Positions 1-15,007 of a DNA stretch of 64,000 nucleotides are shown piece after piece. Both the position numbers and the translations under genes were made by a program. The first letter of the stretch is position 1. Each line of letters starts with the position of its first letter. Source of the stretch: Bacteroidota bacterium (GTDB lineage Bacteria > Bacteroidota > Bacteroidia > Bacteroidales > UBA12077); NCBI GenBank assembly GCA_020444275.1, contig JAHLLG010000001.1, positions 583,773-647,772 of the forward strand. Reading direction: 5' to 3'. A model generated the notes under the pieces. That model did no database searches. It worked only from the letters and a program-made list of their open reading frames with translations, and was not told the origin of the DNA.

Positions 1-504
1 TTGTCTCAGGTTACATCGTTTGAGTTGCCTTTAACTTTAGGTGTTATTGCAATTGCTATGCAATATCAAACACTGAATATTACAGAAATTGTTGCTGCTC
101 AGCAGGGTGGATTTTTAAACTGGACAGTCATAACTAATCCTTTTGCAGCAGCTGCAATGCTAATAGCATTTCTTGGTGCTATGGGACGTTCTCCTTTTGA
201 TGTAGTTCTAGCACCACAAGAAATTCCAATTGGACCACCAACAGAATTTCATTCCGGTTTATTGGGTGTTTTGCAATTGAATCGTGCAATTTTTCCTGTT
301 GCTAAATTGATTCTTTTTATGAATCTATTATTTGGTGGAGCAACCAATTGGTTTGAGTTAATAGTAAAGACATTTTTTATTTATATGTGGTCTGTTTTTG
401 TTGGGGTTGTTTACCCACGATTCAGAGTAGACCAATCAGTGCGATGGTTTTTAACAGTACCATTAATTATTGGAATCATTGCAATTATTTTAATTCGATT
501 TTAA
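1..504 (+). CDS. NuoH/EchB/HyfC-like polytopic membrane subunit of an Ech/Ehr-type complex; C-terminal part, 5' end lies outside the window
   Basis: Open from base 1. Hydrophobic helices plus a loop ..SPFDVVLAPQEIPIGPPTEFHSG.. resembling the PFD..AE.E...G..TEYSG loop of NuoH/HycD-type subunits. Stop is 3 nt before the NuoB-like gene. Confidence 0.7.
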   Translation: MSQVTSFELPLTLGVIAIAMQYQTLNITEIVAAQQGGFLNWTVITNPFAAAAMLIAFLGAMGRSPFDVVLAPQEIPIGPPTEFHSGLLGVLQLNRAIFPVAKLILFMNLLFGGATNWFELIVKTFFIYMWSVFVGVVYPRFRVDQSVRWFLTVPLIIGIIAIILIRF

Positions 505-507
505 GAA

Positions 508-1146
508 ATGAAAGAAGATTTTAAAAAACGGACGGTAATATCACCTGATGGTAAACCGATTGAAATAGATCCTGTTAAAGATTATTTTAGTGATGCTAAG
601 CCTAAGGTATACAAACCTGCGCATCCTGTAATTGAGAAGTTTGCCAATTGGGCACGTGCTAACTCGTTGTGGGTGCTTGGATTTGGAACAGGTTGTGGTG
701 CAATTGAAATGCGTCCGCTGATGACACCCCGATTTGATGCTTACAGATATGGTATTCAGTGGAGACCAACACCAAGACAATCCTCGGTATTTGTTATTTC
801 AGGATACTTATCGGTTAAAACACTTAAACGAGTGGTTCGTACCTATGAGCAGATGCAGAATCCAAAGTTTGTAATTGCCTTGGGTAGCTGCACAATAAAT
901 GGGGGAATGTACTGGGATAGTTACAACACAATCAATCGATTGGATCATTATTTGCCTGTTGATGTGTATGTAGCAGGATGTATGCCTCGTCCGGAATCCT
1001 TATTAACAGGATTCGAAGAATTAAAGAAAATTATAAAAGAAGGTCGTGGAGAAGGTGCTAACAAGTATGCAGAAAATTTCGATTGGTACAAAGCAAACCA
1101 AAAGAAGATTATTAAAGATTGGGATATGCCGGATTATAACTGGTAG
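508..1146 (+). CDS. NuoB/EchC-like (20 kDa, hydrogenase small-subunit-like) Fe-S subunit
   Basis: Motifs FGTGCGAIEM, GSCTINGG and AGCMPRPE match the NuoB FGLACCAxEM / GxCxxxGG / GCPPRPE pattern. The second cysteine of the tandem CC is Gly here. Confidence 0.85.
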   Translation: MKEDFKKRTVISPDGKPIEIDPVKDYFSDAKPKVYKPAHPVIEKFANWARANSLWVLGFGTGCGAIEMRPLMTPRFDAYRYGIQWRPTPRQSSVFVISGYLSVKTLKRVVRTYEQMQNPKFVIALGSCTINGGMYWDSYNTINRLDHYLPVDVYVAGCMPRPESLLTGFEELKKIIKEGRGEGANKYAENFDWYKANQKKIIKDWDMPDYNW

Positions 1147-1186: not shown

Positions 1187-1714
1187 ATGAAAGACATAAT
1201 TGACCGAATAAAAACAAAATATACAATATCAGAAGTTGTTGAACAGAGGAAGAATCTAAGTTTTGTAACTGTTTCCAAAGAACAGGCTATCTCCATTATA
1301 ACATTTTTGAGAGATATTGAAGGATTTAAACATCTGGTTTTACTTACTGCAGCTGATTGGATTGAGAATGATAAATTTCAGTTAACTTATTTATTAAATA
1401 ATCCGACTGAAAAGATTGATTTAGGAGTAAGAGTTTTTATTTCCCGAGAGAATGCAAGCATGGAATCAGCTCATCATCTTTGGGAGCAGGTAGCTACTTA
1501 TCAACGTGAATTAAAAGAAATGTTTGGGATTGATTTTCCTGATAGTCCGGGTGTTGATAAACCCTTTATTTTAGAAGGTTGGGAAGATATACCACCTTAT
1601 CGACGTGATTTTGATACAAAACAATATTCTGAAGATACATATTTCCCAAGACCGGGAAGAGAATCAAATGATCCGGCAGAATATATGAAGAAAAAGCTTT
1701 ATCCGAATGAATAA
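1187..1714 (+). CDS. NuoC/EchD-like (30 kDa) subunit
   Basis: 175 aa. Lies between the B-like and D-like genes and overlaps the next gene by 8 nt. The region ..WEQVATYQRELKEMFGIDFPDSPG..PFILEGWE..PPYRRDF resembles the Complex1_30kDa core (ERE..dmfGi.f.gHP..r.il). Confidence 0.7.
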   Translation: MKDIIDRIKTKYTISEVVEQRKNLSFVTVSKEQAISIITFLRDIEGFKHLVLLTAADWIENDKFQLTYLLNNPTEKIDLGVRVFISRENASMESAHHLWEQVATYQRELKEMFGIDFPDSPGVDKPFILEGWEDIPPYRRDFDTKQYSEDTYFPRPGRESNDPAEYMKKKLYPNE

Positions 1715-2897
1715 GAAAAGATTTACCATAAACGAAGACAGATCATTATTCCCAGAAAAAAATGCTGAAGGGAAAATTGATATTGATTTAAGTTCGCATA
1801 AATATCTAAAATTGTGGCAAGGTCCGCAACATCCTGGTATAACCGGTAATATGTCGCTTGAGTTAACAGTACTTGGCGATGAAGTAATGGACTGTGAAAC
1901 ACATGTTGGATATTTACATCGTGGATTTGAAAAATTAATGGAACGACGTAAGTATATTCAATGTTTTCCAATTGTATGTCGGGTAGCTGTACCAGAACCG
2001 GATTTTAATGAGTATTGTTTTGCTTCGGCAATGGAAGAACTTGCAGGCATTGAAGTGCCTGAAATGGCTCAATGGTTAAGAACATTGGTATTGGAAATGT
2101 CTCGACTACAGTCTTATTTAATGTGGATTGGTGGTCAATCCGGTGCTTTTGGTTCCGGAATAATTGGACAATGGTCAATTTACTTACGTGATTTAGTTTT
2201 AGATCGTTTTGAAGAACTTACCGGTGGGCGCGTATATCATATGTATCAATTGCCCGGTGGAGTTCGTGGTTTGTTACCAGACGGATTTAAACAACGCATG
2301 GAAGAAACATTGCTAACCATAGAGAAATTTATGGATGATATCGATAAGGTAATGTTTAACAACGCTGTATTTAAAAAACGTTCGGTAGGAATGGGATATA
2401 TTGATCCTTCATGGGTAAATAAATTCGGAATTACTGGTCCTAATGCACGTGCTGCAGGAATACCTTTAGATGTTCGAAAAGATTATCCATATCTAAAATA
2501 TCCTGAACTGGACTTTGATGTAGTTGTTGGTAAAGATTCTGATATATATACACGTGCAGATATAAGACGAAAAGATCTATTATTAAGTGTTGACCTAATA
2601 CGCCAGATTTTTGCCAAAATGCCTGAGAAGGGTGATATTAAAGCAAAAACACCAAATGTGTTGCACTGGAAGGTGCCAAAAGGAGAAACATATAGCCGTG
2701 CCGAATGTACACGAGGTGAATATGGTTACTATATGGTTTCTGATGGCACTGAATATCCAAGAAGAATCAATGTTCGCGGACCTAGTTATACACATGCAGT
2801 TGCATTGTTAGAAAAAATGATCATTAACACAAATATAGCTGATGTAGCAGGATTAATGGTATCCTTGCATACTTATCCGCCGGAAATTGAACGATAA
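1707..2897 (+). CDS. NuoD / group-4 [NiFe]-hydrogenase large-subunit-like protein lacking NiFe ligands
   Basis: GPQHPG..G start motif, 396 aa. N-terminal R-x-C-G-x-C position reads CRVAVPEP. C-terminal DPCxxC position reads HTYPPEIER. C-terminus is NuoD-like (..GEVDR). Confidence 0.85.
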   Translation: MNKKRFTINEDRSLFPEKNAEGKIDIDLSSHKYLKLWQGPQHPGITGNMSLELTVLGDEVMDCETHVGYLHRGFEKLMERRKYIQCFPIVCRVAVPEPDFNEYCFASAMEELAGIEVPEMAQWLRTLVLEMSRLQSYLMWIGGQSGAFGSGIIGQWSIYLRDLVLDRFEELTGGRVYHMYQLPGGVRGLLPDGFKQRMEETLLTIEKFMDDIDKVMFNNAVFKKRSVGMGYIDPSWVNKFGITGPNARAAGIPLDVRKDYPYLKYPELDFDVVVGKDSDIYTRADIRRKDLLLSVDLIRQIFAKMPEKGDIKAKTPNVLHWKVPKGETYSRAECTRGEYGYYMVSDGTEYPRRINVRGPSYTHAVALLEKMIINTNIADVAGLMVSLHTYPPEIER

Positions 2898-2939: not shown

Positions 2940-4736
2940 ATGAAACTTAAAGATATATTATCTCCATTTACCGCCTGGAAACATGTAGTAAGAGAGCCTG
3001 TTACCATAAAAGATCCTTTTTCACGCGAAGGAGCCGACAGGTATAGGGGATTTCATAAAAATGATATTGAAACATGTATTGGCTGTGGTACTTGCGAAGA
3101 TATTTGCCAAAATGCAGCTATTGATATGGTTCCCGTAGAAGGTATAGAAACAAAAGACGGTGATAGTGGATTACGTCCACAGATTGATTATGGGAGATGC
3201 TGTTGGTGTGCTTTATGCGTAGATGTTTGTACAACCAATTCATTAAGTCTTTCTAATCATTTTACCTGGGTTGATGAAGATGCTGATGTATTCAGATTCA
3301 TACCTGGTGTAGATAAAAAAGATTGGGATAACGAAGAGCGTGGTTGGAAAAAACCGGAACCAAATTATGAGCTTTACGAAAAGGAAAGAGTTCCAATGCG
3401 AGAGCTTCATCCGGAAGAAAGAGATAAATCTTTTATTGAAATGGTTAAAGGTTATTCCAAAGAAGAAGCTGAGCGCGAAGCAGACCGTTGTGTTGAATGT
3501 GGTATTTGTATTGCTACTTGTCCTGCTCACATGGGTATTCCTGAGTATATCAAGGCCGTTCGTGAAGATAATATCGAAGAAGGATTTAAAAAATTATACG
3601 AAACCAATCCATTACCGGAAATTTGTGGACGTATTTGTACTCATAAATGCGAAACAGTCTGTTCTGTAGGTCATACAGGTGATCCGCTTTCTATTCGCTG
3701 GCTAAAAAGATATATTGCTGATCAGGTTGAATCAGAAGATTATAAGAATATCTTGGGAACAGATGGAATAGAAAATAATGGAAAAAAGATTGCTATTATC
3801 GGATCAGGACCATCCGGTTTATCTGCTGCTCATTATCTTGCATTAATGGGTTATCAGGTTAAAATATTCGAAGCATTTGATAAAGCAGGTGGTATGATGC
3901 GTTATGGAATTCCAGAATATCGTTTGCCTTATGATCAAATCGATAAAGATATTAACTACATATTATCTTTAGGTGTTGAAATTCAATATAATACTAAGGT
4001 AGGAAAAGATGTTTCTTTAGCTGATCTCGAAAAAGAATATGATGCCGTATTTGCAGGAACCGGATTACATTTAGGAAGAAGTACACGTATTCCAGGATCA
4101 GATCATGAAAATGTATACTTTGCTACTGATTTGCTGCGTGAAATTACACAAGGAAAAGAAATTCATGTAGCAGAGAAGATTGTCGTAATTGGAGGTGGTA
4201 ATGTGGCAATGGATATTACTCGTTCGTTAGCACGTTTACAAAACCAGAAATATGGTAAGGTTGATGTTACTGCTACTTCATTAGAATCTGAAGATATAAT
4301 GCCTGCCGATCGCGAAGAAATTGTAGAATCTCGTGAAGAAAAAGCAATCGTTGATCCGGGATGGGGACCTACTTCCATTGAAATTGAAAATAATAAGATT
4401 AAAGGATTACATGTTCAAAAATGTACTTCTGTTTTCGATGAAGAAGGTCGTTTTAATCCTAAGTTTGACGAATCGCAAACAAAATTCTTTGAAGCAGATA
4501 TGATTGTTGAATCAATCGGTCAGGGAATGGATATTGAATATATCAGTAAAGATATTCGTGAACAAATGGAGTTTGATCCACGCGGTAGAATAATTGTTGA
4601 TGATTATTTCCAATCGGGAGCTAAGTGGTTATTTGTTGGTGGAGATATTATTCAAGGACCAGATGTGATTCATGGTATTGCTAATGGACACAGGGCAGCA
4701 ATCGGAATTGATAAGTATTTAAACGAAAAAGCTTAA
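2940..4736 (+). CDS. Fusion protein: NuoI/EchF-type 2x[4Fe-4S] domain plus GltD/NfnB/PreT-like NAD(P)H-FAD oxidoreductase
   Basis: N-terminal CIGCGTCEDIC and CCWCALCVDVC (two CxxCxxCxxxC). Then CVECGICIATCP...CGRICTHKCETVC (GltD N-terminal Fe-S region). Then IAIIGSGPSGLSAA (FAD) and VVIGGGNVAMD (NAD(P)H) Rossmann motifs. Confidence 0.8.
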   Translation: MKLKDILSPFTAWKHVVREPVTIKDPFSREGADRYRGFHKNDIETCIGCGTCEDICQNAAIDMVPVEGIETKDGDSGLRPQIDYGRCCWCALCVDVCTTNSLSLSNHFTWVDEDADVFRFIPGVDKKDWDNEERGWKKPEPNYELYEKERVPMRELHPEERDKSFIEMVKGYSKEEAEREADRCVECGICIATCPAHMGIPEYIKAVREDNIEEGFKKLYETNPLPEICGRICTHKCETVCSVGHTGDPLSIRWLKRYIADQVESEDYKNILGTDGIENNGKKIAIIGSGPSGLSAAHYLALMGYQVKIFEAFDKAGGMMRYGIPEYRLPYDQIDKDINYILSLGVEIQYNTKVGKDVSLADLEKEYDAVFAGTGLHLGRSTRIPGSDHENVYFATDLLREITQGKEIHVAEKIVVIGGGNVAMDITRSLARLQNQKYGKVDVTATSLESEDIMPADREEIVESREEKAIVDPGWGPTSIEIENNKIKGLHVQKCTSVFDEEGRFNPKFDESQTKFFEADMIVESIGQGMDIEYISKDIREQMEFDPRGRIIVDDYFQSGAKWLFVGGDIIQGPDVIHGIANGHRAAIGIDKYLNEKA

Positions 4737-4747
4737 AATAAAATAGT

Positions 4748-5728
4748 ATGATTGACCTTTCGACAGAATACATGGGTTTAAAATTAAAGAACCCAATAAT
4801 TGCAGCTAGTTCAGGTATGACTGATTCAGTTGATAAAATCAAAAAGTTAGCTGATAATGGAGTTGCTGCTGTGGTTTTAAAATCTCTTTTCGAAGAACAA
4901 ATCCGAATGGAGATTGATTCTTTGGGTATGAATAATATGTTCAATTCCTATTCAGATACAGAAAGTTATATTGCCTTTTATACCAAGCAAAACGCCGTTA
5001 GTGAATATTTAAAATTGATTCAGGTTGCAAAAAAAGCTGTTGATATTCCTGTTATTGCTAGTATAAATTGCTATTCTATGGGAGAATGGGTTGAATTTGC
5101 TGAGAAAATTGAAAAAGCAGGCGCTGATGGTATAGAGTTAAATATGTTTATTTTACCTGGAGATACTGAAACCAAAGGTGAAGAAATAGAAAAAAAATAT
5201 TTCGATATTATCGAAAATGTAACAAAACATACTAGTTTGCCGGTTTCAGTTAAGTTGAGTCATTATTTTTCCGGAATGGGAGAGATATTTAAGAGAATTT
5301 CTGAAACACGGGTTAAGGGGATGATTTTATTTAATCGCTTTTATAGTCCGGATGTGGATTTGGATAATGAGGAGATTGTTTCATCAAGAGTTCTTAGTTT
5401 ACCTGAAGAAAATTCAATGTGTATTCGCTGGATAGGAATGTTATCTAATAAAGTATCATCAGATTTATGTGCATCTACCGGAATTATGGATGGTAAGGAT
5501 GCATTAAAAAACATTCTTGTTGGAGCCAAAGCAGTGCAAGTAGCATCTACACTTTATAAAAACAAACCTGAGCAAATAGGTGTAATGTTGAAGCAAATAG
5601 AAGATTGGTTAAAACAGAAAGGATATAAATCCATAGATGAAATAAGGGGAAAACTGAATACGTCAAAACTGAATATGGAACGATACGAAAGAGCTCAATT
5701 CATGAAATATTATTCGAACTACGAATAA
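4748..5728 (+). CDS. Dihydroorotate dehydrogenase-like (DHOD/PreA-like TIM-barrel flavoprotein) protein, copy 1
   Basis: N-terminal L.L.NPII.ASSG, ..ADGIELN.., ..GI..G.DA.k.il.GA.AVQvaS typical of the class-1 DHOD/DPD FMN domain. Starts 11 nt after the GltD-like gene. Confidence 0.75.
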   Translation: MIDLSTEYMGLKLKNPIIAASSGMTDSVDKIKKLADNGVAAVVLKSLFEEQIRMEIDSLGMNNMFNSYSDTESYIAFYTKQNAVSEYLKLIQVAKKAVDIPVIASINCYSMGEWVEFAEKIEKAGADGIELNMFILPGDTETKGEEIEKKYFDIIENVTKHTSLPVSVKLSHYFSGMGEIFKRISETRVKGMILFNRFYSPDVDLDNEEIVSSRVLSLPEENSMCIRWIGMLSNKVSSDLCASTGIMDGKDALKNILVGAKAVQVASTLYKNKPEQIGVMLKQIEDWLKQKGYKSIDEIRGKLNTSKLNMERYERAQFMKYYSNYE

Positions 5729-5733
5729 GAACT

Positions 5734-5761
5734 AAACCGGCTTGGACAGTCGGTTTTTTTA
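5734..5761 (+). terminator. Rho-independent terminator ending the Ech-like operon
   Basis: Hairpin AAACCGGCU / AGUCGGUUU (loop UGGAC) followed by a U run. Confidence 0.6.
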
Positions 5762-5845: not shown

Positions 5846-6328
5846 ATGAAAGTAAGTGAAATATTAGACAAAAAGAAGGAGCAGGGTATAAACAAAATTT
5901 ATACTGTTTCTGAAGTAAGTACTGCATTCGATGCAATTTCTAAATTGGATAACTTAAAAGTGGGATCATTACTTGTTGTAGATTCGAAAGATGAAATAAT
6001 TGGAATTGTATCTGAACGTGATATTTTATATAAATGTTACAATTCCGGAATTCCATTAAAAGAACGTAACATTAAGGATTTGATGACACCAAAAGATAAC
6101 CTGATTATCGGAAAACTAGATGATAAAACCGATTATTTGAGAAGTGTGATGACCGATAGACGAATTCGTCACATACCAATTATTGATGATTCAAACCAGG
6201 TTGTTGGAATAATCTCTTCCGGAGATATTCTTAAAAATGAACTGGAAGTTACCGAAGCAGAAGCACATTTGTTAAGAGAACATATTAAAAATCCTTTTGG
6301 TGTTCATACCTATAAATCTGAAGATTAG
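5846..6328 (+). CDS. CBS domain pair protein
   Basis: 160 aa with two CBS-like units (..VGSLLVVDSKDEIIGIVSERDIL.. and ..IRHIPIIDDSNQVVGIISSGDIL..). Confidence 0.8.
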   Translation: MKVSEILDKKKEQGINKIYTVSEVSTAFDAISKLDNLKVGSLLVVDSKDEIIGIVSERDILYKCYNSGIPLKERNIKDLMTPKDNLIIGKLDDKTDYLRSVMTDRRIRHIPIIDDSNQVVGIISSGDILKNELEVTEAEAHLLREHIKNPFGVHTYKSED

Positions 6329-6461: not shown

Positions 6462-7439
6462 ATGATAGATCTCTCAACAAATTATATGGGGTTTAAATTA
6501 GAAAACCCAATTATTGCAGCCAGCTCAGGAATGACAGATAGTGTTGATAAAATAAAAAACCTGGAAGTGAATGGAGTAGGTGCCGTAGTACTGAAATCAT
6601 TATTCGAAGAGCAAATCATGATGGAGATAGACAAAACTACGGCTCAAAACTTATATAATACATATGGTGATGCAGAGGAATACATCGAGTATTATACTCG
6701 TAAGCATAACATAGATAATTATTTACATCTGATTGAAAAGTCAAAAGCTGAAGTGGATATTCCTGTTATTGCAAGTTTAAATAGTTTCTCTGTTGGGCGT
6801 TGGGTTGATTTTGCTGAAAAAATAGAATCTGCAGGAGCGGATGGAATTGAATTGAATCTTTTTTTACTACCAGGTGATCAAAAGTTTAGCGGGCAGGAAA
6901 TAGAGAATATTTACCTGGATATTATCCGAAGCGTGAGGAAAAATACAACCTTGCCCATTGCAGTTAAGTTGAGTTCATATTTTACCGGTTTGGCCGATTC
7001 GCTCATCAAAATGTCTAAAGAGCAAGTATCAGCCATGGTATTGTTTAATCGTTTTTATAGCCCCGATGTTGATTTGGAGAATGAGCAAATTGTTTCGTCA
7101 AGAATTTTTAGCTTACCCGAAGAAAATTCAAACTGTATTCGTTGGATTGGAATACTTTCTGATAAAGTGGATTGCGATTTAGCGGCATCAACAGGAATAG
7201 TCGATGGCTACGATGCACTTAAGAATTTATTGGTTGGCGCAAAAGCGGTTCAGGTTGCATCTACACTTTATAAAAATACTGCCAAACAAATTGGTATCAT
7301 GAAACATCAAATGGAAGTTTGGATGAACGAGAAAGGATATAAATCTCTGGATGAGATTATAGGAAAACTCAGCTATAAAAAGATTGAAAAGCCAATGATT
7401 TATGAGCGTGCACAGTTTATGAAATACTTTCAGAAGTAA
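6462..7439 (+). CDS. Dihydroorotate dehydrogenase-like protein, copy 2 (paralogue of 4748-5728)
   Basis: Collinear with copy 1 over its full length (MIDLST.YMG.KL.NPIIAASSGMTDSVDKIK...). Same substituted active-site stretch. Confidence 0.75.
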   Translation: MIDLSTNYMGFKLENPIIAASSGMTDSVDKIKNLEVNGVGAVVLKSLFEEQIMMEIDKTTAQNLYNTYGDAEEYIEYYTRKHNIDNYLHLIEKSKAEVDIPVIASLNSFSVGRWVDFAEKIESAGADGIELNLFLLPGDQKFSGQEIENIYLDIIRSVRKNTTLPIAVKLSSYFTGLADSLIKMSKEQVSAMVLFNRFYSPDVDLENEQIVSSRIFSLPEENSNCIRWIGILSDKVDCDLAASTGIVDGYDALKNLLVGAKAVQVASTLYKNTAKQIGIMKHQMEVWMNEKGYKSLDEIIGKLSYKKIEKPMIYERAQFMKYFQK

Positions 7440-7463
7440 TAATTCATATGTTAATAGTTAACA

Positions 7464-7493
7464 AAAGTCAGCATGTTATTTGCTGACTTTTTA
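7464..7493 (+). terminator. Rho-independent terminator
   Basis: AAAGUCAGCA / UGCUGACUUU 10-bp stem, 7-nt loop, U run. Confidence 0.65.
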
Positions 7494-7507: not shown

Positions 7508-8764
7508 ATGATGAAAACAATCTTATTTATAATAGTTGTTATTTTTAGTTTTATTTCTGCTCAGAGTCAGGAAGTTTTTCAAGACAAAATCTTTAATAAA
7601 AACATTAAAACAGTTTTAATGTATCTCGGTGATGATGATATGTCTTTCCCGATTTGGGATTTGGGTAGTAGCAAGCAATTAACGCTCAGTTTTGATGAGT
7701 TAAATGCAAGCGTAAAGGATTATTACTATACTATAATTCACTGCAACTCGGATTGGACAAGATCAAACCTGGATCAAAGTGAGTATATCGAAGGATATTT
7801 TGAAGATCAGATTTCTGAGTATCAATCATCGTTTAATACCACTGTAGATTATACACATTATGAGCTAAAGATTCCGAATGATTATATGCGCCCGATGATA
7901 TCCGGGAATTACGTAATTGAAGTTTTTGATAGTTCAAATCCTGATAAGGCCATATTCAGAAAACGTTTTATGGTGGTTGAGCGAAAAACCAATATCGAAA
8001 TGAAAGTAAGCAACATGAATCAGGGAGCGTATTTTTATAATGATCAGGAACTGGAAATTGTCGTAGATTATTTCCAGAATGATTTTTATGATATCAGTCA
8101 AAATCTTGAAGTTCAGGTTTTAAAAAATTACAACTGGGTACAGCTACTTGTTCTAAAACAACCAAATATAATCAAGGATAATGAGTTTACCTTTAATGAT
8201 TTTTCAAAATTAAAATTTAAAGGTGGTAACGAGTTTCATCACTTTAATACAAAGGATATCCATTATAATGCCGAAAATATTAAGAACATTAGCTTTATGG
8301 ATAATCAGTATCATTTTCAATTAGTTGAGAATAAAGATCGAACATTTGATGATTATCAGTTTGTACCCGATATTAACGGGTTATATAAAATTGATGTATC
8401 ACAAAGTGATTATCCTGAAACAGAAGCCGATTATACATATGTTTATTTTACCTTAAATATGAATGTACCTTTACAGCAGGGTGAAATGTATGTTTGGGGA
8501 GCTTTAACCAATTATGAGTTTACCAACGATAATATGTTGCGATATAATTTCGAACAAAAAGCATACGAGGGACGTTTGCTTTTAAAGCAAGGATACTATA
8601 ATTTTCAGTATGTAACTTTGGAAAAAGGAAAGCCTGATTTTACATACATTGAAGGCAATCATGCACTGACAGAAAATAGCTATACTACATTGGTATATTA
8701 TCACGATTTTAGTGGTGGATATGATCGGTTAATCGGGCATACCGAAATTTCTACAAGAGAATAA
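7508..8764 (+). CDS. Secreted DUF5103 / type IX secretion plug-like domain protein
   Basis: Signal peptide, then ..IKTVLMY..FPIWDLGSSKQLTLSFDEL...YYYTIIHCNSDWT.S.L...EYI.G......Y..S.NT..DYTHY.L.IPN....SGNYVIEVF. I recall this as the DUF5103 N-terminal signature. Confidence 0.5.
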   Translation: MMKTILFIIVVIFSFISAQSQEVFQDKIFNKNIKTVLMYLGDDDMSFPIWDLGSSKQLTLSFDELNASVKDYYYTIIHCNSDWTRSNLDQSEYIEGYFEDQISEYQSSFNTTVDYTHYELKIPNDYMRPMISGNYVIEVFDSSNPDKAIFRKRFMVVERKTNIEMKVSNMNQGAYFYNDQELEIVVDYFQNDFYDISQNLEVQVLKNYNWVQLLVLKQPNIIKDNEFTFNDFSKLKFKGGNEFHHFNTKDIHYNAENIKNISFMDNQYHFQLVENKDRTFDDYQFVPDINGLYKIDVSQSDYPETEADYTYVYFTLNMNVPLQQGEMYVWGALTNYEFTNDNMLRYNFEQKAYEGRLLLKQGYYNFQYVTLEKGKPDFTYIEGNHALTENSYTTLVYYHDFSGGYDRLIGHTEISTRE

Positions 8765-8779
8765 TTAAAAATAAATATT

Positions 8780-9694
8780 ATGTTACAAGAAATTTTTACA
8801 AAAAACTTTTGGTCAAGTATTTTGGATAATTTAATGGAATGGTTTGTAAATGTTGCACCATCCATAATTTTACTGATTATTCTGATATTTATCTCCTTAA
8901 AGTTGTTAGGAGTTCTTATTCGTAGATTAAATAAAATCCTTATTAGCAGGGCAACAAAAAATGTTAGCGTGAATACATTGGAGGCTACCAAGCGAATAAA
9001 TACTTTACTGGGCATACTTAAAGGAATAGGTAATATTATTGTATGGACCATTTTTATAATGATTTTATTAAAAAAGTTGGGAATAGACATTGGACCAATT
9101 TTGGCTGGTGCCGGAATTCTAGGTTTGGCCATTGGTTTTGGGGCACAGGAGTTAGTTCGTGATTTTATTTCAGGATTTTTTATTTTACTGGAAAACCAGG
9201 TACGTGCCGGCGATGTAGCCATTATTAACGGAACCGGAGGACTTGTAGAAAAAATCGAAATGAGAACCATGACTTTACGTGACTTTTCAGGTGTAGTTCA
9301 CGTTTTCCAAAATGGTAAGATAAATACATTGTCGAATATGACAAAAGAGTGGTCGGCTATTGTATTCGATATTGGTGTAGCTTACAAAGAAGATATTGAT
9401 CGGGTTATTAAGATTATGCAACTGGTTGGCGAAAAAATGATCAACGAAGAGGAATATAAAGAGGTAATTACTGAGCCCCTCGAAATTTTTGGATTAGATA
9501 AATTTGGCGATAGTGCTATTGTAATAAAAGCTCGTTTAAAAACTATTCCGGGCGAACAATGGCGTTTGGGAAGAGAATATCGTAAACGACTAAAGGTTGC
9601 TTTCGATAAAGAAGGTATTGAAATTCCTTTCCCACATACAACAGTTTATTGGGGTGAGAAAATCGATCCGTTAAAATTGGATGTTAAGAAATAA
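8780..9694 (+). CDS. Small-conductance mechanosensitive channel (MscS family)
   Basis: N-terminal TM helices, GAGILGLAIGFGAQELVRDFISGFFILLENQVRAGD, then a beta-domain. Classic MscS core. Confidence 0.85.
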   Translation: MLQEIFTKNFWSSILDNLMEWFVNVAPSIILLIILIFISLKLLGVLIRRLNKILISRATKNVSVNTLEATKRINTLLGILKGIGNIIVWTIFIMILLKKLGIDIGPILAGAGILGLAIGFGAQELVRDFISGFFILLENQVRAGDVAIINGTGGLVEKIEMRTMTLRDFSGVVHVFQNGKINTLSNMTKEWSAIVFDIGVAYKEDIDRVIKIMQLVGEKMINEEEYKEVITEPLEIFGLDKFGDSAIVIKARLKTIPGEQWRLGREYRKRLKVAFDKEGIEIPFPHTTVYWGEKIDPLKLDVKK

Positions 9695-9703
9695 AGATAA
9701 GTG

Positions 9704-9740
9704 AAAACCCTGTCAGGGTTTTAAATCCTGACAGGGTTAT
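9704..9740. terminator. Bidirectional terminator between convergent genes
   Basis: AACCCTGTCAGG (9706-9717) pairs with CCTGACAGGGTT (9727-9738), a 12-bp stem with A/T runs on both sides. Confidence 0.6.
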
Positions 9741-9753
9741 ATTTAATTCATAC

Positions 9754-12270
9754 TTACAAATTCTTTTCCGGATACATATCATTCCATTGTTGAGGCTGAT
9801 CTTTTAACTTCATATCGAACCACGACATAATGGTGTAATGCCATTCAATTCTTTTATGATAATCTAAAATCCAGTGTTCCTGATTATCTACCAATACCAT
9901 TTCAACCTCTTTTCCTAAGATTTTTAAAGCTGCATAGTACTGTAAACTTTCACCAACGGGCACATTCGGATCTGTTGTTCCGTGTAATAACAATATGGAA
10001 TTATTAAATTTATCTGCATTATAAATCGGGCTGTTATCAACATAAATATCTTTCCTGTTCCACGGATAGCTGAATTTAGCAGCTCCGGTATTATAAGTAT
10101 ATCCCCAATAACCTTCGCCCCAGTAACTTGTTAACGAACTAATTCCGGCATGCGAAATGGCTGTTTTAAAAATATCTGTTCGGGTTTGCAATAACATGGT
10201 GGTATATCCACCGTACGATGCACCAATGCAGCCCATATTTTCAGCATCAGCTGTTGGATGCGATTCAAGGAATTTTTTGGTTCCTTCAATAATATCATCG
10301 GTTTGATCAAAACCCCAACCATTAACATGCAGTGCTGAGAAATCCTGACCAAAACCTGTTGCACCGCTTGGTTGTAAAACATAAACAATATATCCACCGG
10401 CGGTATATACATTAATTGGATATCTGCCACCAAAAGATCGCTCAATGGGCGATGTGCCGCCATAATAATTTACAATTACAGGATACTTTTTAGAAGCATC
10501 GTAATTTGGCGGATAGTATACCCGGCCATAAATTGTTGTACCGTTTTTATTGGTGAAATTCCATGGTTCAGTTTTGCCAAACTGGATATTTTTAAATCGC
10601 TCTTTTTCTGGGAAAGCTAAAACTGTATTTATTCCTTTTTTTAGATCAATCGAATACAATTTCTTTGGAGTAGAGATGCTTGTTCCGGTATATACAGCAA
10701 CAGGCTTATTATACGCAAAATCAATATCATCAAGAACTTCTACAAGTAAGTTCACTTTACTAAACGATTTGGATTTGAGATTATACTTGTAGAGGTTACC
10801 ATAATCTCTATCGATAACAGAAACATAAATCTCATTATCATTTGTCCAAAAAGCATCACTAATGGCAGGATCAAAGTTTTTAGTTATAGGTTCAACATTT
10901 TTTGAGGCCAAATCAAAAAGATACAACTGAGAATCATACTTGTTCGGAATTCTACCTTTGCTAACATTTACACCCAAATCTCCAAAACTTTCAGGTCCAC
11001 CCTGAACTAAAAGTTTTGTTCCATCTAGTGAATACTGACAATATCCATCATAAAGTTTATCTTCCCAAATGGTATTTATCTGGAACGTGTTGATATCCAA
11101 TTCATACAGATTCTGCTTGAAAAATGGAACTTCATTATAATCCGTTTTCGAGGTCGAGAATAAAATTTTACTTCCGTCAGGTTTAATATCGTGTAAATCG
11201 GCTGATAAATTACCTGCTGTAAGCTGAGTAATCAAACCGGTTTTTGCATCAATTTTGTGCAAGAACGATCGGTTTCTAAAGTAGGGTAAACGATCTTCGT
11301 TTCCATAAATCCTTTTTAGATCACCTGGTTTTGTTGCTGTAATATGATCAGTATAAATAATATACTCTTCAGTTGGCGACCAGGCATACGATGATAGATT
11401 TTCGATTTCTTTAGCAATGCTTGTTTCTGTTCCGGCTTCAATATCATAAACCAGGATTTCTGTTTTTCCTTCGAAATCTAACGAGTAAGATAAACGGTCG
11501 GTTCTTGGTAACCAGCTTACATGATCTATGTTCTTGCTTCGTAAAATTTCAACGTTCTTTTCTTCCTCCAGGTTATAAATAACACTATATTTTTTTGTTT
11601 TGCCACTTCCGGGCACAACCTCTTTGTAATCTATTAAAACGTACTTTCCAGAAGGTGAAATGCTGGCAGCAGAGACATTTTTACCTTCCAATACATCATG
11701 AATGGTAAAATACCTTGTCGCATCCAGACTGGTTTTTGGATTACAGTCTTCATATTCTCCTGCATATTCAAAATTGGCAGCAAGCTTAATTTGCTCATCA
11801 ATGGTAATTGCTTTAATAGTAATTCGATGGTTGCCTCTGTTAAGTTTAAGGTCAATTGCAGTTTTTTCTATATCAGAATTCGATTTTGATTTAAGTTTTT
11901 CGCCATCAACATAAACGTCATATAAGGCATTCAGTGTAAGGTTTAAAGTCCCTTTAGTCCATCGGTCGACCGACAAGTTGGTTTCAAGAAAAAATAGATT
12001 GTATGCCGTTGATTGCAGAAACACAATACTATCAGCACTTAATTTTATGGTATTCCAGCTAAGATTAGCAGTGGAAGCATCGAGCTGTGTAGAATTCATC
12101 AGATTTGATACTTCAAATTCTTTTCCATCGATATTCTTCGTATCAGCAAAAGCAGGCATCTTAATTTCAGGAGTATCTGAAATCTTCCAGCTATTAAGCT
12201 GAATAGAATTTTGAGCAATTGAGAACTGTGTTGCAATTCCCAAAATGAATAGGATAATAAGTTTTTTCAT
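9754..12270 (-). CDS. S9 family serine peptidase (prolyl oligopeptidase/DPP-like) with N-terminal beta-propeller region
   Basis: Signal peptide. C-terminal alpha/beta hydrolase with nucleophile elbow GASYGGY, then ..LLLHGTTDPNV.. and ..QEHWI.. (Asp/His). Confidence 0.85.
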   Translation of the reverse strand: MKKLIILFILGIATQFSIAQNSIQLNSWKISDTPEIKMPAFADTKNIDGKEFEVSNLMNSTQLDASTANLSWNTIKLSADSIVFLQSTAYNLFFLETNLSVDRWTKGTLNLTLNALYDVYVDGEKLKSKSNSDIEKTAIDLKLNRGNHRITIKAITIDEQIKLAANFEYAGEYEDCNPKTSLDATRYFTIHDVLEGKNVSAASISPSGKYVLIDYKEVVPGSGKTKKYSVIYNLEEEKNVEILRSKNIDHVSWLPRTDRLSYSLDFEGKTEILVYDIEAGTETSIAKEIENLSSYAWSPTEEYIIYTDHITATKPGDLKRIYGNEDRLPYFRNRSFLHKIDAKTGLITQLTAGNLSADLHDIKPDGSKILFSTSKTDYNEVPFFKQNLYELDINTFQINTIWEDKLYDGYCQYSLDGTKLLVQGGPESFGDLGVNVSKGRIPNKYDSQLYLFDLASKNVEPITKNFDPAISDAFWTNDNEIYVSVIDRDYGNLYKYNLKSKSFSKVNLLVEVLDDIDFAYNKPVAVYTGTSISTPKKLYSIDLKKGINTVLAFPEKERFKNIQFGKTEPWNFTNKNGTTIYGRVYYPPNYDASKKYPVIVNYYGGTSPIERSFGGRYPINVYTAGGYIVYVLQPSGATGFGQDFSALHVNGWGFDQTDDIIEGTKKFLESHPTADAENMGCIGASYGGYTTMLLQTRTDIFKTAISHAGISSLTSYWGEGYWGYTYNTGAAKFSYPWNRKDIYVDNSPIYNADKFNNSILLLHGTTDPNVPVGESLQYYAALKILGKEVEMVLVDNQEHWILDYHKRIEWHYTIMSWFDMKLKDQPQQWNDMYPEKNL

Positions 12271-12352
12271 TCGACTTTTATTTTGAGTTTAGCTTTTGAC
12301 CTGACACTTATTGTTACGTTTAATTAAGCTATAATTGATAAATATACATGAA

Positions 12353-12360
12353 CAAAGTTA
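12353..12360 (-). promoter_or_regulatory. Candidate Bacteroidota -7 box (TAACTTTG) upstream of the S9 peptidase gene
   Basis: The minus strand reads TAACTTTG, matching TAnnTTTG, about 83 nt upstream of the ATG at 12270. Motif match only. Confidence 0.25.
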
Positions 12361-12442
12361 ACATAAATTTAATTTGCGAATCACTGAATGTTTTGTTTTC
12401 CCGGTGCATATTTTTTAAATTGTATAGCTAAAACTGGAAAAT

Positions 12443-13015
12443 ATGAAAAGGCACTTTTTTACACTGATTGTTTTGCTTGTAATCTTTTTTGAAGGCTTAT
12501 CGCAAAATGTCGATAGTATTTTAATGAATGATATTCAGAAGGTTAATCAGAAGATGGATCGTGTAATTAATTCTCTTGAAATGAAAAATGAGGTGTTACT
12601 GAAAGAAAATAATAGCTTATTAGTATGGAATAAGCAATTAATGGAAAAGCTAAACCAAATTGAAAATCAAGCAGAAAAACAATATGCAGAAAACAAAACC
12701 ATCCTGATTGAAGAAAACCAGCAGTTAAAAAATGCAATTGGGAATGTAAATAAAAATATAAAGCCCAAATTTATTGCATTATATGTTTTATTAGGTGTTG
12801 CAATTCTTCTGATTTTATACTTACTTATTATTTTAAGAATTTCCAGAAGAGAATCTATAGAATACCTATTATCACAAACAGATGGGCTAAGCAAGCAAAA
12901 TCACGAGATTATTGAAAAGGCAAAAGACCTTAAAAAGATAAAGAAAAACCTAAAAGAGCTTATTAAGCAGCAAAAGGCTGAGAAGAGCAAGAAAAAGAAG
13001 AAAAAGAAAAAGTAA
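12443..13015 (+). CDS. Hypothetical signal-peptide / coiled-coil / single-TM protein with poly-Lys C-terminus
   Basis: N-terminal signal-like helix, heptad-rich middle, TM helix FIALYVLLGVAILLILYLLIIL, tail ..KSKKKKKKKK. Confidence 0.45.
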   Translation: MKRHFFTLIVLLVIFFEGLSQNVDSILMNDIQKVNQKMDRVINSLEMKNEVLLKENNSLLVWNKQLMEKLNQIENQAEKQYAENKTILIEENQQLKNAIGNVNKNIKPKFIALYVLLGVAILLILYLLIILRISRRESIEYLLSQTDGLSKQNHEIIEKAKDLKKIKKNLKELIKQQKAEKSKKKKKKKK

Positions 13016-13016
13016 T

Positions 13017-13745
13017 CTACTGGTTGTTTGTTAGTTTATGTAATACCTTGTCTTTATAACTGCGACTTATAGGGATTTCATGTTTACCAATTCCAATGGT
13101 TTCATTAGTAAATGAGTCAACTGACTTTAATGAAATAATAAATGATCGGTGTGTTCTAATGAAATCTTTTTGAGGCAGTTTAGCTTCAATGTTTGAAATG
13201 GTTTCTCTTGTGATAACTGTATTATCTGTAAGATGGATTTTTATGTAATCACTTAAACTTTCAATGTAAGTAATTTCATCAAAATTAATTTTGATCATTT
13301 TTCGGTCTGATCGTACAAAAAAGTGATCATTTTTTTCAGGAATTATCTTATCGGGAATGCTATTTACAACAGTGGTTTCATTAAAGTACTTATTCATTGC
13401 CTGTAGCAACCGGTCGAACGATATAGGCTTTAGTAAATAATCAACAGCTTGCAGATCAAAGCCATCCACTGCATATTCTCTGTAAGCTGTAGTAAAAATA
13501 ATTTTGATATTAGTGTTAATTGATCTGGCAAAAGATAAGCCGGAAATTTCAGGCATATTAATATCCAAAAAAATGAGATCCACATGCTCTGCATTGATTT
13601 TATTAAACGCTTCGACAGCATTCTTACAGCTTCCCACAACCATTACAGAGTTAATTTTATGTAAATGATTTTCGAGAATTTCCCGTGCTGTTGGTTCATC
13701 ATCAACAATTAAGCAGTGTATTGTTTTAGTCATTTTTAATGACAT
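13017..13745 (-). CDS. LytR/AlgR (LytTR DNA-binding) family response regulator
   Basis: REC domain (LIVDDE.., DLIFLDINMP, LLKPI) plus a C-terminal LytTR-like region (..I.YIES..DYIKIH...RSFIISL). Confidence 0.9.
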   Translation of the reverse strand: MSLKMTKTIHCLIVDDEPTAREILENHLHKINSVMVVGSCKNAVEAFNKINAEHVDLIFLDINMPEISGLSFARSINTNIKIIFTTAYREYAVDGFDLQAVDYLLKPISFDRLLQAMNKYFNETTVVNSIPDKIIPEKNDHFFVRSDRKMIKINFDEITYIESLSDYIKIHLTDNTVITRETISNIEAKLPQKDFIRTHRSFIISLKSVDSFTNETIGIGKHEIPISRSYKDKVLHKLTNNQ

Positions 13746-14793
13746 TTAAGTTAGAAATCAGCAGGTTTACCGAATACCAGTTGTTTGTTGTATCATAAGT
13801 CAGCTTGTAATGATCACTATAATTTAAATCGAGTCTCTTTTTTATATTTTCCAATCCAATTCCTGGTTCTTGATTTTGGTTTTCCTTGTTAAAGGTGTTT
13901 CGAATGGTAAAATCCAGACTATTATCAGAAATTTTTATATGAATCTCGATTGATAAAAATTCATCGATAATATTGCCGTGTTTAAATGCATTTTCTACAA
14001 ACGGAATTAAAAGCATTGGAGCCACCTGAATATCATCTCTAATTTCATCTGCATTAAAAACAACTTTTAGTGTATCTTGAAAACGTATTCTTTCTAGTTC
14101 TATGTATTCTTCAATATGTAAAACTTCTTCTTTTAGGCTTACACGCGGTTTGTTGATTTGATATAAGATATAATCCAATAAATTGGAAAGCTTTAGAATA
14201 ATATCCGGAGTTTGCTTCGCTTGTTTCAATGCAAATCCATAAATGGTATTGAGTGTATTGAATAAAAAATGTGGATGAATTTGTCTTTTCAAGTAATGCA
14301 ATTCCTGCTCTTTTAATTGCAATTGCGTTTCCAGGATTTTGTTTTGCAGCTCTTTATTTCTCGAAATGGTTTTAAAATTCTGATTTAGAATACTAATGAA
14401 ACTTACCAAACCAACCACCAAATAAACCATGATTAGTATAAAAACAAAGTTCTTACTCATAGGCGGCATAATGCCAATATCCAAACTTAACAGGAATATC
14501 AGGCAACCGTAAATAATCATTACAATTAAATACGATGAAGCAACCAGTGTATAAAAACTGAATAACGCAAATCGAAGATATTGCTTGGTTAGAAGGTATT
14601 TTGGAATAAGAAAATAAACCACAAAATAAGTAGTTGCTATTGTAAGGGGTAATAACAAACTGGCAAACCAAACAGGATATTCAATGTTCTCAGAGTTGTA
14701 ATTAAAAAAATAGATAAAGAAAAACCACACAGCAATCCATAATAATACATGCATTACGGCAGTTCCGATTTTTTTATTCTTCACCAACTTCAT
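13726..14793 (-). CDS. LytS-type sensor histidine kinase
   Basis: Multi-TM N-terminus, then LKRQIHPHFLFNTLNTIY (His_kinase/LytS H-box) and an ATPase region. Overlaps the regulator gene by 20 nt. Confidence 0.85.
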   Translation of the reverse strand: MKLVKNKKIGTAVMHVLLWIAVWFFFIYFFNYNSENIEYPVWFASLLLPLTIATTYFVVYFLIPKYLLTKQYLRFALFSFYTLVASSYLIVMIIYGCLIFLLSLDIGIMPPMSKNFVFILIMVYLVVGLVSFISILNQNFKTISRNKELQNKILETQLQLKEQELHYLKRQIHPHFLFNTLNTIYGFALKQAKQTPDIILKLSNLLDYILYQINKPRVSLKEEVLHIEEYIELERIRFQDTLKVVFNADEIRDDIQVAPMLLIPFVENAFKHGNIIDEFLSIEIHIKISDNSLDFTIRNTFNKENQNQEPGIGLENIKKRLDLNYSDHYKLTYDTTNNWYSVNLLISNLNVIKND

Positions 14794-14901
14794 AAAAACA
14801 ATATTACATAAAATCGTTGAATCAACCTTTATTTATAGATGAATAACCGGATTAAAGTCTTTTTCTACAAAATAAGGGTAGTAAATTTCATTTCGTAACT
14901 T

Positions 14902-14909
14902 TATATTTG
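14902..14909 (+). promoter_or_regulatory. Candidate -7 box TATATTTG
   Basis: Matches TAnnTTTG about 99 nt upstream of the ATG at 15008. Motif match only. Confidence 0.25.
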
Positions 14910-15007
14910 TTGAAAAGCGACTTGATTTTATCATTCGTCGCAAATAAAAAAATGCAGTTCATATTCTTCATACATTTGATTTAGTATTAATTAAAAACGA
15001 AAACATT

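Follow-up and report, generated by a model that had tools for sequence, protein, structure and literature searches.

We describe a gene near the start of a 64,000-nucleotide (nt) stretch of genome from a Bacteroidota bacterium of the lineage UBA12077 in the Bacteroidales (GenBank assembly GCA_020444275.1, contig JAHLLG010000001.1, forward-strand positions 583,773 to 647,772). The whole stretch is called the window here, and positions are counted from its first letter. The gene is a single open reading frame (ORF) in which a domain related to NuoI and MbsN, the ferredoxin-type subunits of complex-I-like membrane complexes, is followed by a flavoprotein unit related to NfnB and GltD. Its parts are as follows, with positions in amino acids (aa) where these are given:

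2940..4736, forward strand: fusion ORF, 598 aa, a single ATG-started frame without an internal stop
2940..3320, forward strand: NuoI/MbsN-like domain, aa 1-127, from the alignment to 6u8y_N
3321..3380, forward strand: short charged linker, aa 128-147, without assigned homology, the gap between the MbsN-like and NfnB-like alignments
3381..4736, forward strand: NfnB/GltD-type unit, aa 148-598, with Fer4_20, an FAD fold and an NAD(P)H fold
4278..4286, forward strand: the residues S-L-E, aa 447-449, where beta-2 of the NAD(P)H fold ends, from alignments to 9n5u_A, 9bov_A and 4ylf_B

Motif positions in the ORF were found by script. The N-terminal domain carries CxxCxxCxxxC at aa 46-56 and again at aa 87-97, with an additional Cys at 88. 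The C-terminal part contains CxxCxxCxxxC-P at aa 184-195, Cx3Cx3Cx3C at aa 229-241 and two dinucleotide motifs, GSGPSG at aa 288-293 (FAD fold) and GGGNVA at aa 418-423 (NAD(P)H fold). The Pfam matches are far beyond chance level: Fer4_7 on aa 45-100 (E=1.8e-9), Fer4_20 on aa 162-266 (E=4e-30) and Pyr_redox_2 on aa 283-578 (E=5e-24). A preliminary description of this DNA, made from the letters and their translations, had reported one 598-aa frame without an internal stop, which is borne out by reading 2940-4736 on the forward strand. Of the two N-terminal motifs that it listed, the first (aa 46-56) stands as given, and the second, put at aa 86-97, is placed by the script at 87-97. It had also described a charged linker of about 70 aa. 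The charge is present (17 D/E and 11 K/R per 60 residues in aa 106-165, by script), but the length is not: homology to MbsN ends at aa 127 and homology to NfnB begins at about aa 148, which leaves a linker of about 20 residues.

Fusion residues 5-127 align to MbsN of Pyrococcus furiosus (6u8y_N, E=1e-23); the next solved relatives are NdhI/NuoI (1e-11 to 1e-8) and MbhN (2e-6). Matches to the NuoI, FpoI and NdhI models begin at about aa 4-14, with E=1e-28 to 1e-12, and all stay under the full-length cutoffs. The MbsN match begins at residue 5 and therefore covers the pre-ferredoxin segment that is specific to the NuoI/MbsN family. The cluster ligands of MbsN are C61/64/67/106 and C71/96/99/102 (PMC8165549); the motifs at aa 46-56 and 87-97 align with them, and family alignments A1-A3 show little or no variation at any of the eight Cys. 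The gene upstream, which is NuoD-like, ends 42 nt before the fusion, and the same arrangement is seen in nearly all of the 83 related loci analysed below. Judged by its sequence, the N-terminal domain is a true NuoI-family subunit with two predicted [4Fe-4S] sites; it had been proposed to be an I/F-type subunit, and both the match from residue 5 and the place after the NuoD-like gene uphold that proposal. A generic N-terminal ferredoxin was considered and rejected, since the MbsN/NuoI match reaches outside the cluster motifs and the matches to PsaC, PorD and polyferredoxins lie more than ten orders of magnitude behind it.

In one respect the protein departs from its family. NuoI/MbsN proteins stand alone at about 130-210 aa, and this one has 598 aa with a 450-aa C-terminal flavoprotein. 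P. furiosus MbsN itself, 208 aa long, stands alone and receives its electrons from ferredoxin, whereas in the window the part past about residue 140 is replaced by the NAD(P)H flavoprotein. The NuoI subunit family contains another fusion as well, P0228 (668 aa), in which a NuoI-like domain is followed directly by NuoB-like sequence.

By sequence, the NfnB/GltD-type unit is closest to the Nfn large subunits, NfnABC and StnABC (E of about 1e-78 to 1e-74), compared with 1e-53 for GltD and 1e-33 for dihydropyrimidine dehydrogenase (DPD). The fusion was modelled with AlphaFold2, with high confidence over aa 170-598, and the flavoprotein half of the model matches the fold of P. furiosus NfnI-L (5jca_L) with a template modelling (TM) score of 0.87 on the target, a root mean square deviation of 2.5 A and 36% identity; the N-terminal 150 residues, which comprise the N-like domain and the linker, have a predicted local distance difference test (pLDDT) score <50, as is the case all along aa 89-149. 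Eight Fe-S Cys for two [4Fe-4S] clusters (C184-194 and C229-241) and both dinucleotide folds are present. Sequence and model thus agree that the C-terminal part is a complete NfnB/GltD unit, as had been claimed for it from its Fe-S motifs and two Rossmann motifs, and as the NfnB-like fold match bears out. The large subunits NfnB and NfnI-L (4ylf_B, 5jca_L) have the same eight Fe-S Cys and the same FAD and NAD(P)H folds; the window protein differs from them in its extra N-terminal NuoI-family domain, in S-L-E for Y-R-R and in the lack of NfnA in its operon. Neither within the operon nor beside it was an NfnA/PyrK-like or GltB partner found, whether in the window, in two Bacteroidales relatives (L001 and L002) or in a Thermotoga genome (L084); the rest of the genome was not searched. 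Glutamate synthase and a true Nfn were accordingly rejected as identities for an operon without GltB or NfnA.

The nucleotide site of the flavoprotein differs from that of its closest relatives. NADPH-dependent NfnB-type proteins have Y-R-R where the window protein has S-L-E (aa 447-449) after an inserted loop. By the general rule for Rossmann folds, the basic Y-R-R at the end of beta-2 would belong to the site of the 2'-phosphate. Because S-L-E replaces Y-R-R, NADH is probably the substrate in the window's clade, where all 78 loci have [S/A/C]-L-E. The S-L-E type also occurs in Thermosipho (P0135), and Y-R-R is kept in other fused clusters (P0127, P0128, P0134, P0175 and P0138). We predict from these residues that the fused family splits into NADH-preferring (S-L-E) and NADPH-preferring (Y-R-R) subtypes.

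The fusion gene is confirmed as real and widely conserved. Its 120 best database homologues are 594-610 aa long, align with 99-100% coverage and come from many independent assemblies, those of the cultured isolates Prolixibacter bellariivorans and Tenuifilum osseticum among them; full-length fused homologues are also found in Thermotoga, Thermosipho, Fervidobacterium and Petrotoga. One relative (L004, OY762280.1) is 100% identical over the N-terminal 185 aa of the fusion and 96% identical over the whole protein. An exhaustive search of 50%-identity cluster representatives with aa 1-165 alone turned up the whole architecture in at least a dozen divergent clusters (<50% identity) of 580-620 aa; the combination of I subunit, Fer4_20 and flavoprotein for which a domain search had been suggested does recur. 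A scan of species-representative genomes gave at least 597 fusion loci, and the set analysed here comprises 83 (80 from the scan and 3 others); both halves lie in a single frame in 82, the exception being an interrupted copy (L081). As to distribution, which the preliminary description had also raised, groups that commonly have the fusion include anaerobic Bacteroidales, Thermotogota and spirochaetes. A curated 611-aa hidden Markov model in NCBIfam (NF010590/PRK13984) spans both halves, with fusion aa 2-597 aligned to model positions 7-609 at 904.4 bits. That an assembly or frameshift artefact joined two genes, a reading for which we found no support (L081 is an example of a broken version), can be rejected as practically negligible in the face of hundreds of independent assemblies and cultured isolates with full-length, in-frame homologues and a curated model across the junction.

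The fusion is thus already known, and the window is a Bacteroidales addition to a known family. NF010590 has an equivalog cutoff of 946 bits, and the window protein, at 904.4, falls just under it; among the representatives tested, only the Thermotogae type passes. With the same architecture but a score under the cutoff, the window protein therefore belongs to a sister lineage of NF010590. P0135, from Thermosipho melanesiensis, passes the PRK13984 cutoff with 1195 bits, and its family includes the protein from Thermotoga maritima MSB8. The Thermotoga genome examined (L084, CP000969.1) encodes that same MSB8 protein, and its mbx operon closes with the fusion (615 aa) as gene thirteen. The terminal subunit of T. 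maritima MBX, represented by PRK13984 (P0295, P0135), shares the N-like domain, Fer4_20 and the FAD and NAD(P)H folds with the window protein over its full length, with about 54% identity, and has the same S-L-E type site and inserted loop. Like the window's fusion, its gene follows that of the L subunit, there in a 13-gene operon that encodes an Mrp-like arm plus a peripheral arm.

The fused type has also been touched on in the literature. A 2015 paper (PMC4758237) describes a gltD-related flavoprotein with an NAD(P)+ site that takes the place of NuoI in mbx-like operons, and notes that these operons often end in rubrerythrin. That paper speaks of substitution, whereas the NuoI-type domain is retained and fused, and the wording of the preliminary description, a covalent fusion, is more exact. 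A 2022 study (PMC9431562) found that S0 induces T. maritima mbxA 4.4-fold and modelled MBX as a ferredoxin-dependent sulfur reductase, with the flavoprotein half unmentioned. The Mbx of P. furiosus is a sulfane reductase (PMC7684303). Literature searches on Mbx in Bacteroidetes, on NfnB fusions and on Mbx in other Thermotogae found nothing useful.

The genes immediately upstream of the fusion encode the membrane anchor and peripheral-arm subunits of a membrane complex:

1..504, forward strand: NuoH/MbsM-like membrane anchor gene, 3' part, cut by the window start (Pfam NADHdh, E=6e-29)
508..1146, forward strand: NuoB/MbsJ-like subunit, proximal [4Fe-4S], three Cys at C63, C128 and C158 (6u8y_J, E=2.4e-63)
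1187..1714, forward strand: NuoC/MbsK-like subunit (Pfam Complex1_30kDa, E=9e-25)
1707..2897, forward strand: NuoD/MbsL-like subunit, without quinone or [NiFe] ligands (6u8y_L, E=1.7e-93)

For the N-like, J-like and L-like subunits alike, the best solved relative is the membrane-bound sulfane reductase (MBS) of P. furiosus (6u8y), well ahead of complex I, NDH, MBH (a membrane-bound hydrogenase) and formate hydrogenlyase. The next matches to the J-like subunit after 6u8y_J are at about 1e-37, and those of the L-like subunit are Nqo4 at 5e-60 and MbhL at 6e-34. Since the window begins inside the M-like gene, the upstream order was read from two relatives, one 97% identical (L001) and one from Prolixibacter (L002). 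In both, the order is MnhE, MrpF, MnhG, MbhD, MbhE/MnhB, a NuoK-like gene, a 1045-aa antiporter-like gene, M, J, K, L and the fusion; the full M-like gene in L001 encodes 303 aa, and a divergent gene for a Crp/Fnr-type regulator lies upstream of the operon. This is the full 13-gene Mbx/MBS order, but with H and H' fused. The H and H' of Bacteroidales are one protein of 1043-1045 aa (L001 3418-6555; L002 3558-6689), and those of Thermotoga are separate, with 466 and 626 aa (L084 3664-6946). In the spirochaete locus L085 the operon is rearranged, with the peripheral-arm genes ahead of the Mrp-like genes. Small mobile-type genes lie between the operon genes in two further relatives (L086 2763-3152, 4947-5333 and 7308-7935; L087 4719-5075). 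These inserts are 23S rRNA intervening-sequence proteins and a HepT/MNT toxin-antitoxin pair, and the order of the operon's own genes is unchanged.

The catalytic-site residues distinguish among the possible types of complex. In MBS the proximal cluster is held by three Cys, and the L subunit lacks equivalents of H38 and Y87 of Nqo4 as well as a [NiFe] site (PMC7684303, PMC8165549). The J-like protein of the window has three Cys in total (C63, C128 and C158). Its G-T-G-C-G is invariant in 74 of 74 related operons, and exactly three core Cys are found in 72 of 75 orthologues; with exactly three, a fourth Cys ligand for the proximal cluster is impossible in the Bacteroidales J. In the L-like subunit, H38 of Nqo4 aligns with Thr46, as it does with Thr in 81 of 83 orthologues, and Y87 aligns with Val. 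There are no [NiFe] Cys, and the vestigial pair of MbsL, C85 and C385, has become Ala94 and Tyr390. This pair is part of the MBS pattern and is kept in 50 of the 83 related operons, the others having [A/S/T]-Y (28) or C-Y (5), and none A-C. The two positions co-vary, and their being lost together suggests that they act jointly; in P. furiosus they are dispensable for dimethyl trisulfide reduction (PMC7684303).

The corresponding residues of other groups were also noted. The J-like subunits of Thermotoga (L084 7845-8381) and of the spirochaete (L085 5339-5911) have Y-C-T-G-C-G; the Thermotoga J has four Cys, at 25, 28, 93 and 123, and they match C25, C93 and C123 of P. furiosus MbsJ. The Thermotoga L subunit (L084 8882-9988) has His at the Nqo4 H38 position (GPNHPGMHGN) and Val at that of Y87. 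Relative to T. maritima MBX, then, the Bacteroidales operon has a fused H/H', a J without Cys25 and an added DHO_dh-like gene, and the window's lineage is without the L-subunit Cys pair.

With 6u8y the best match for the peripheral subunits, a three-Cys J and a ligand-free L, the host complex is therefore, by these signatures, of the Mbx/MBS type, neither Nuo nor Ech nor Mbh. It shares with P. furiosus MBS the three-Cys proximal cluster and the absence of quinone ligands and of a [NiFe] site, and the operons of L001 and L002 share its gene order. The preliminary description had spoken of a membrane module and had named Nuo, Ech and Mbh for comparison, in place of which Mbx/MBS should now be read. 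A quinone-reducing complex of complex I or NDH type was rejected because the tandem Cys of NuoB and the H38/Y87 ligands are absent, and a hydrogenase (Mbh/Ech) because there are no [NiFe] Cys and the match to MbhL is weak.

Downstream of the fusion, the following features were found:

4748..5728, forward strand: DHO_dh-like FMN-barrel gene (PRK07565 family), 326 aa (NF005741, 407 bits; cutoff 303)
5734..5756, forward strand: terminator-like hairpin followed by a T-run (terminator scan)
5846..6328, forward strand: CBS-pair protein (Pfam CBS, E=2e-18)
6462..7439, forward strand: second DHO_dh-like paralogue, 66% identical to the first
7463-7491: terminator-like site of the second DHO_dh-like paralogue (terminator scan)

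The first DHO_dh-like gene starts 11 nt past the stop of the fusion, and the scan, which gave 7 terminator-like sites in the region as against 2.9 +/- 1.7 in shuffles, placed none between the two. This gene is probably co-transcribed with the fusion as the last gene of the operon. The CBS-pair gene and the second paralogue each have a terminator-like site of their own. An Rfam scan of the window gave zero matches.

Sufficient downstream sequence for a census of the gene directly after the fusion was available in 67 loci. A DHO_dh-like gene takes this place in 38, one for a CBS-pair protein in 11 and a rubrerythrin-like one (about 150 aa) in about 9, the last just downstream of the fusion in, for example, L021, L044, L048, L062 and L063. 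A CBS-pair gene often follows the DHO_dh-like gene in relatives (L086 and L087 are examples), and its product might be a nucleotide-sensing regulator of the complex. In proteins of the spirochaete type, 748-764 aa long (P0132, P0350; L085 7608-9854), the flavoprotein continues at its C-terminus into a rubrerythrin domain. The Thermotoga operon (L084) has no partner gene after the fusion.

The first DHO_dh-like gene is the likeliest place for something new. Its product has three Cys and no Fe-S domain, and scores 87 bits against the PreA model (cutoff 335). A fold search matched class 1A dihydroorotate dehydrogenase (DHOD) and domain IV of DPD equally, with a TM score of about 0.6 and 16-19% identity, and in a weak alignment the position of the catalytic Cys of class 1 DHOD is taken by Ile, so that the Cys is seemingly lacking. 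A literature search on the PRK07565 family found no characterised member. Downstream of the second paralogue, window positions 7508-12270 (a block of T9SS-plug, MscS and S9-peptidase genes) are syntenic with 11936-14990 of another genome (L089), where a DHO_dh-like gene stands alone beside an insertion sequence element and no mbx operon is nearby.

From the observed domain identities, cofactor motifs, operon context, conservation and MBS-type site signature, the best reading, and one that we favour with moderate confidence, is that the fusion supplies a built-in NAD(P)H dehydrogenase module that would feed the three-cluster wire of an MBS-type ion pump. The preliminary description had put this as a pyridine-nucleotide site hard-wired to the membrane module, and with a NuoI-family domain and a complete NfnB/GltD unit in one chain, that remains the best-supported reading. 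As for the order and direction of the path, NAD(P)H, probably NADH in the window's clade, would donate hydride to FAD, and FAD would pass single electrons on, first to both Fer4_20 [4Fe-4S] clusters and next to those of the N-like domain, the distal and the medial. From there they would reach the three-Cys proximal cluster of the J-like subunit and reduce a non-quinone acceptor in the L/J/M chamber, which by homology to MBS may be sulfane or polysulfide sulfur. Reduction of the acceptor would in turn drive translocation of H+ or Na+ by the Mrp-like arm. The conservation of the MBS-type site features in operons of the fused type argues that electrons do reach the proximal cluster.

The role proposed here is analogous to that of NuoEFG in complex I and of FpoF in the F420H2 dehydrogenase, soluble dehydrogenase modules that feed the NuoI-NuoB wire. 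The construction is different. NuoF uses FMN and is an unrelated protein, whereas the module in the window has the FAD-containing GltD/NfnB fold; it is covalently joined to the I subunit, whereas that of complex I is docked via NuoG; and its acceptor site is of MBS type, whereas the site in complex I is for quinone.

Several points weigh against a built-in NAD(P)H dehydrogenase. The main weakness is energetic: established redox values put NAD(P)H at about -320 mV and polysulfide at about -260 mV, and the standard driving force available for ion pumping is small. Sulfur reduction by these Bacteroidales is not established, and, with the vestigial Cys pair of MbsL lost from the window's lineage, something other than the acceptor of P. 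furiosus MBS may be reduced. The preference for NADH is drawn from the general Rossmann-fold rule. With pLDDT <50 over the N-like domain and linker, the distance and geometry between the Fer4_20 clusters and those of the N-like domain cannot be read from the model. Finally, our literature search found no biochemical study of any complex of the fused type.

The alternative that survives best, although we consider it unlikely, runs the path in the other direction, as a ferredoxin:NAD(P)+ oxidoreductase resembling Rnf. Ferredoxin would reduce the N-like clusters, the flavoprotein would reduce NAD(P)+, and an ion gradient would store the energy. Mbx was earlier viewed in this way, and PMC4758237 reads it so. 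By established redox values it has more driving force than the step from NAD(P)H to polysulfide, and the NfnB-type module is reversible in Nfn (PMC6405883). Its path, however, skips the proximal cluster and the L/J/M chamber, the coupling site of all complex-I-like enzymes (PMC8165549), while fused-type operons strictly conserve both the proximal site with its three Cys and the features of the L subunit; moreover, later work on P. furiosus Mbx identified it as a sulfane reductase (PMC7684303).

We regard as improbable a second alternative, in which the NfnB-like FAD bifurcates or confurcates electrons, with one branch to the membrane complex and the other to the DHO_dh-like protein, rubrerythrin or ferredoxin; the outcome would be a membrane-bound, ion-coupled bifurcating enzyme or a DPD-like enzyme with three centres. 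All of the solved proteins to which the flavoprotein is most closely related (NfnI-L, Xfn, T. maritima NfnB, NfnABC and StnABC) are bifurcating, and a redox-type partner often follows the fusion, as the census shows, or, in the case of rubrerythrin, is fused to its C-terminus. The set of GltD-like unit, DHO_dh-like protein and two-[4Fe-4S] domain also matches the cofactor inventory of DPD and PreT-PreA, where a GltD-like Fer4_20-FAD-NADPH unit, a DHO_dh FMN barrel and a two-[4Fe-4S] domain are combined. The likeness has its limits. The ferredoxin domain of PreA is C-terminal and of Fer4_21 type, whereas that of the window is N-terminal on the flavoprotein and belongs to the NuoI family; the DHO_dh-like protein, for the reasons given above (three Cys only, no Fe-S domain, no catalytic Cys in the weak alignment), does not resemble PreA in these features; and the set in the window lies inside the operon of a membrane pump. 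In addition, the fold also serves GltD and DPD, neither of which bifurcates, the operons seen encode no NfnA/PyrK-like [2Fe-2S] flavoprotein, the partner differs by lineage and is missing in many loci, and Thermotoga keeps the fusion without one.

A more specific form of this idea, to which we give slightly less credence still, applies to the Bacteroidales. The fused flavoprotein and the DHO_dh-like FMN protein would together form a DPD- or Nfn-like multi-centre module docked on an MBS-type ion pump, linking NADH, an FMN-site substrate (organic or a second redox compound) and the acceptor at the membrane site, possibly by bifurcation or confurcation coupled to ion translocation. Besides the bifurcating relatives, the 11-nt spacing without a terminator and the linkage in 38 of 67 loci favour such a module, and the Thermotoga operon, which has no partner gene, weakens it. 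The accessory partners may leave room for a DPD-like or bifurcating arrangement, without demonstrating one.

A role in oxidative-stress defence or redox balancing, in which electrons from NAD(P)H would go to rubrerythrin-type peroxidases or O2 and the membrane arm would have another purpose or help to adjust the ion gradient, fits the rubrerythrin-like proteins fused to or adjoining the flavoprotein in several lineages, the frequent terminal rubrerythrin of mbx-like operons (PMC4758237) and the genes just downstream in L086 (two for superoxide dismutase, with rubrerythrin and nitroreductase), but is very unlikely, as neither the window's operon nor that of Thermotoga has a rubrerythrin gene and detoxification alone would not explain the conservation of a 13-gene pump and its catalytic-site signature.

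Complex-I-like pumps have acquired modules for electron input several times, as NuoEFG, FpoF and ferredoxin-binding subunits. On the reading of a built-in NAD(P)H dehydrogenase, the fusion would be a further independent solution, with an NfnB/GltD flavoprotein joined to the I/N subunit of an MBS-type complex. The window does not open this question, since the fusion is already on record; what it adds is the prediction that NADH and NADPH subtypes exist, a J subunit with unambiguously three Cys and a set of variable partners (DHO_dh-like, CBS-pair and rubrerythrin). If NADH is indeed oxidised by the fused module, the ferredoxin-dependent model of sulfur reduction by T. maritima MBX would need revision, and these fermenters would have an uncounted, ion-pumping route of NADH disposal.

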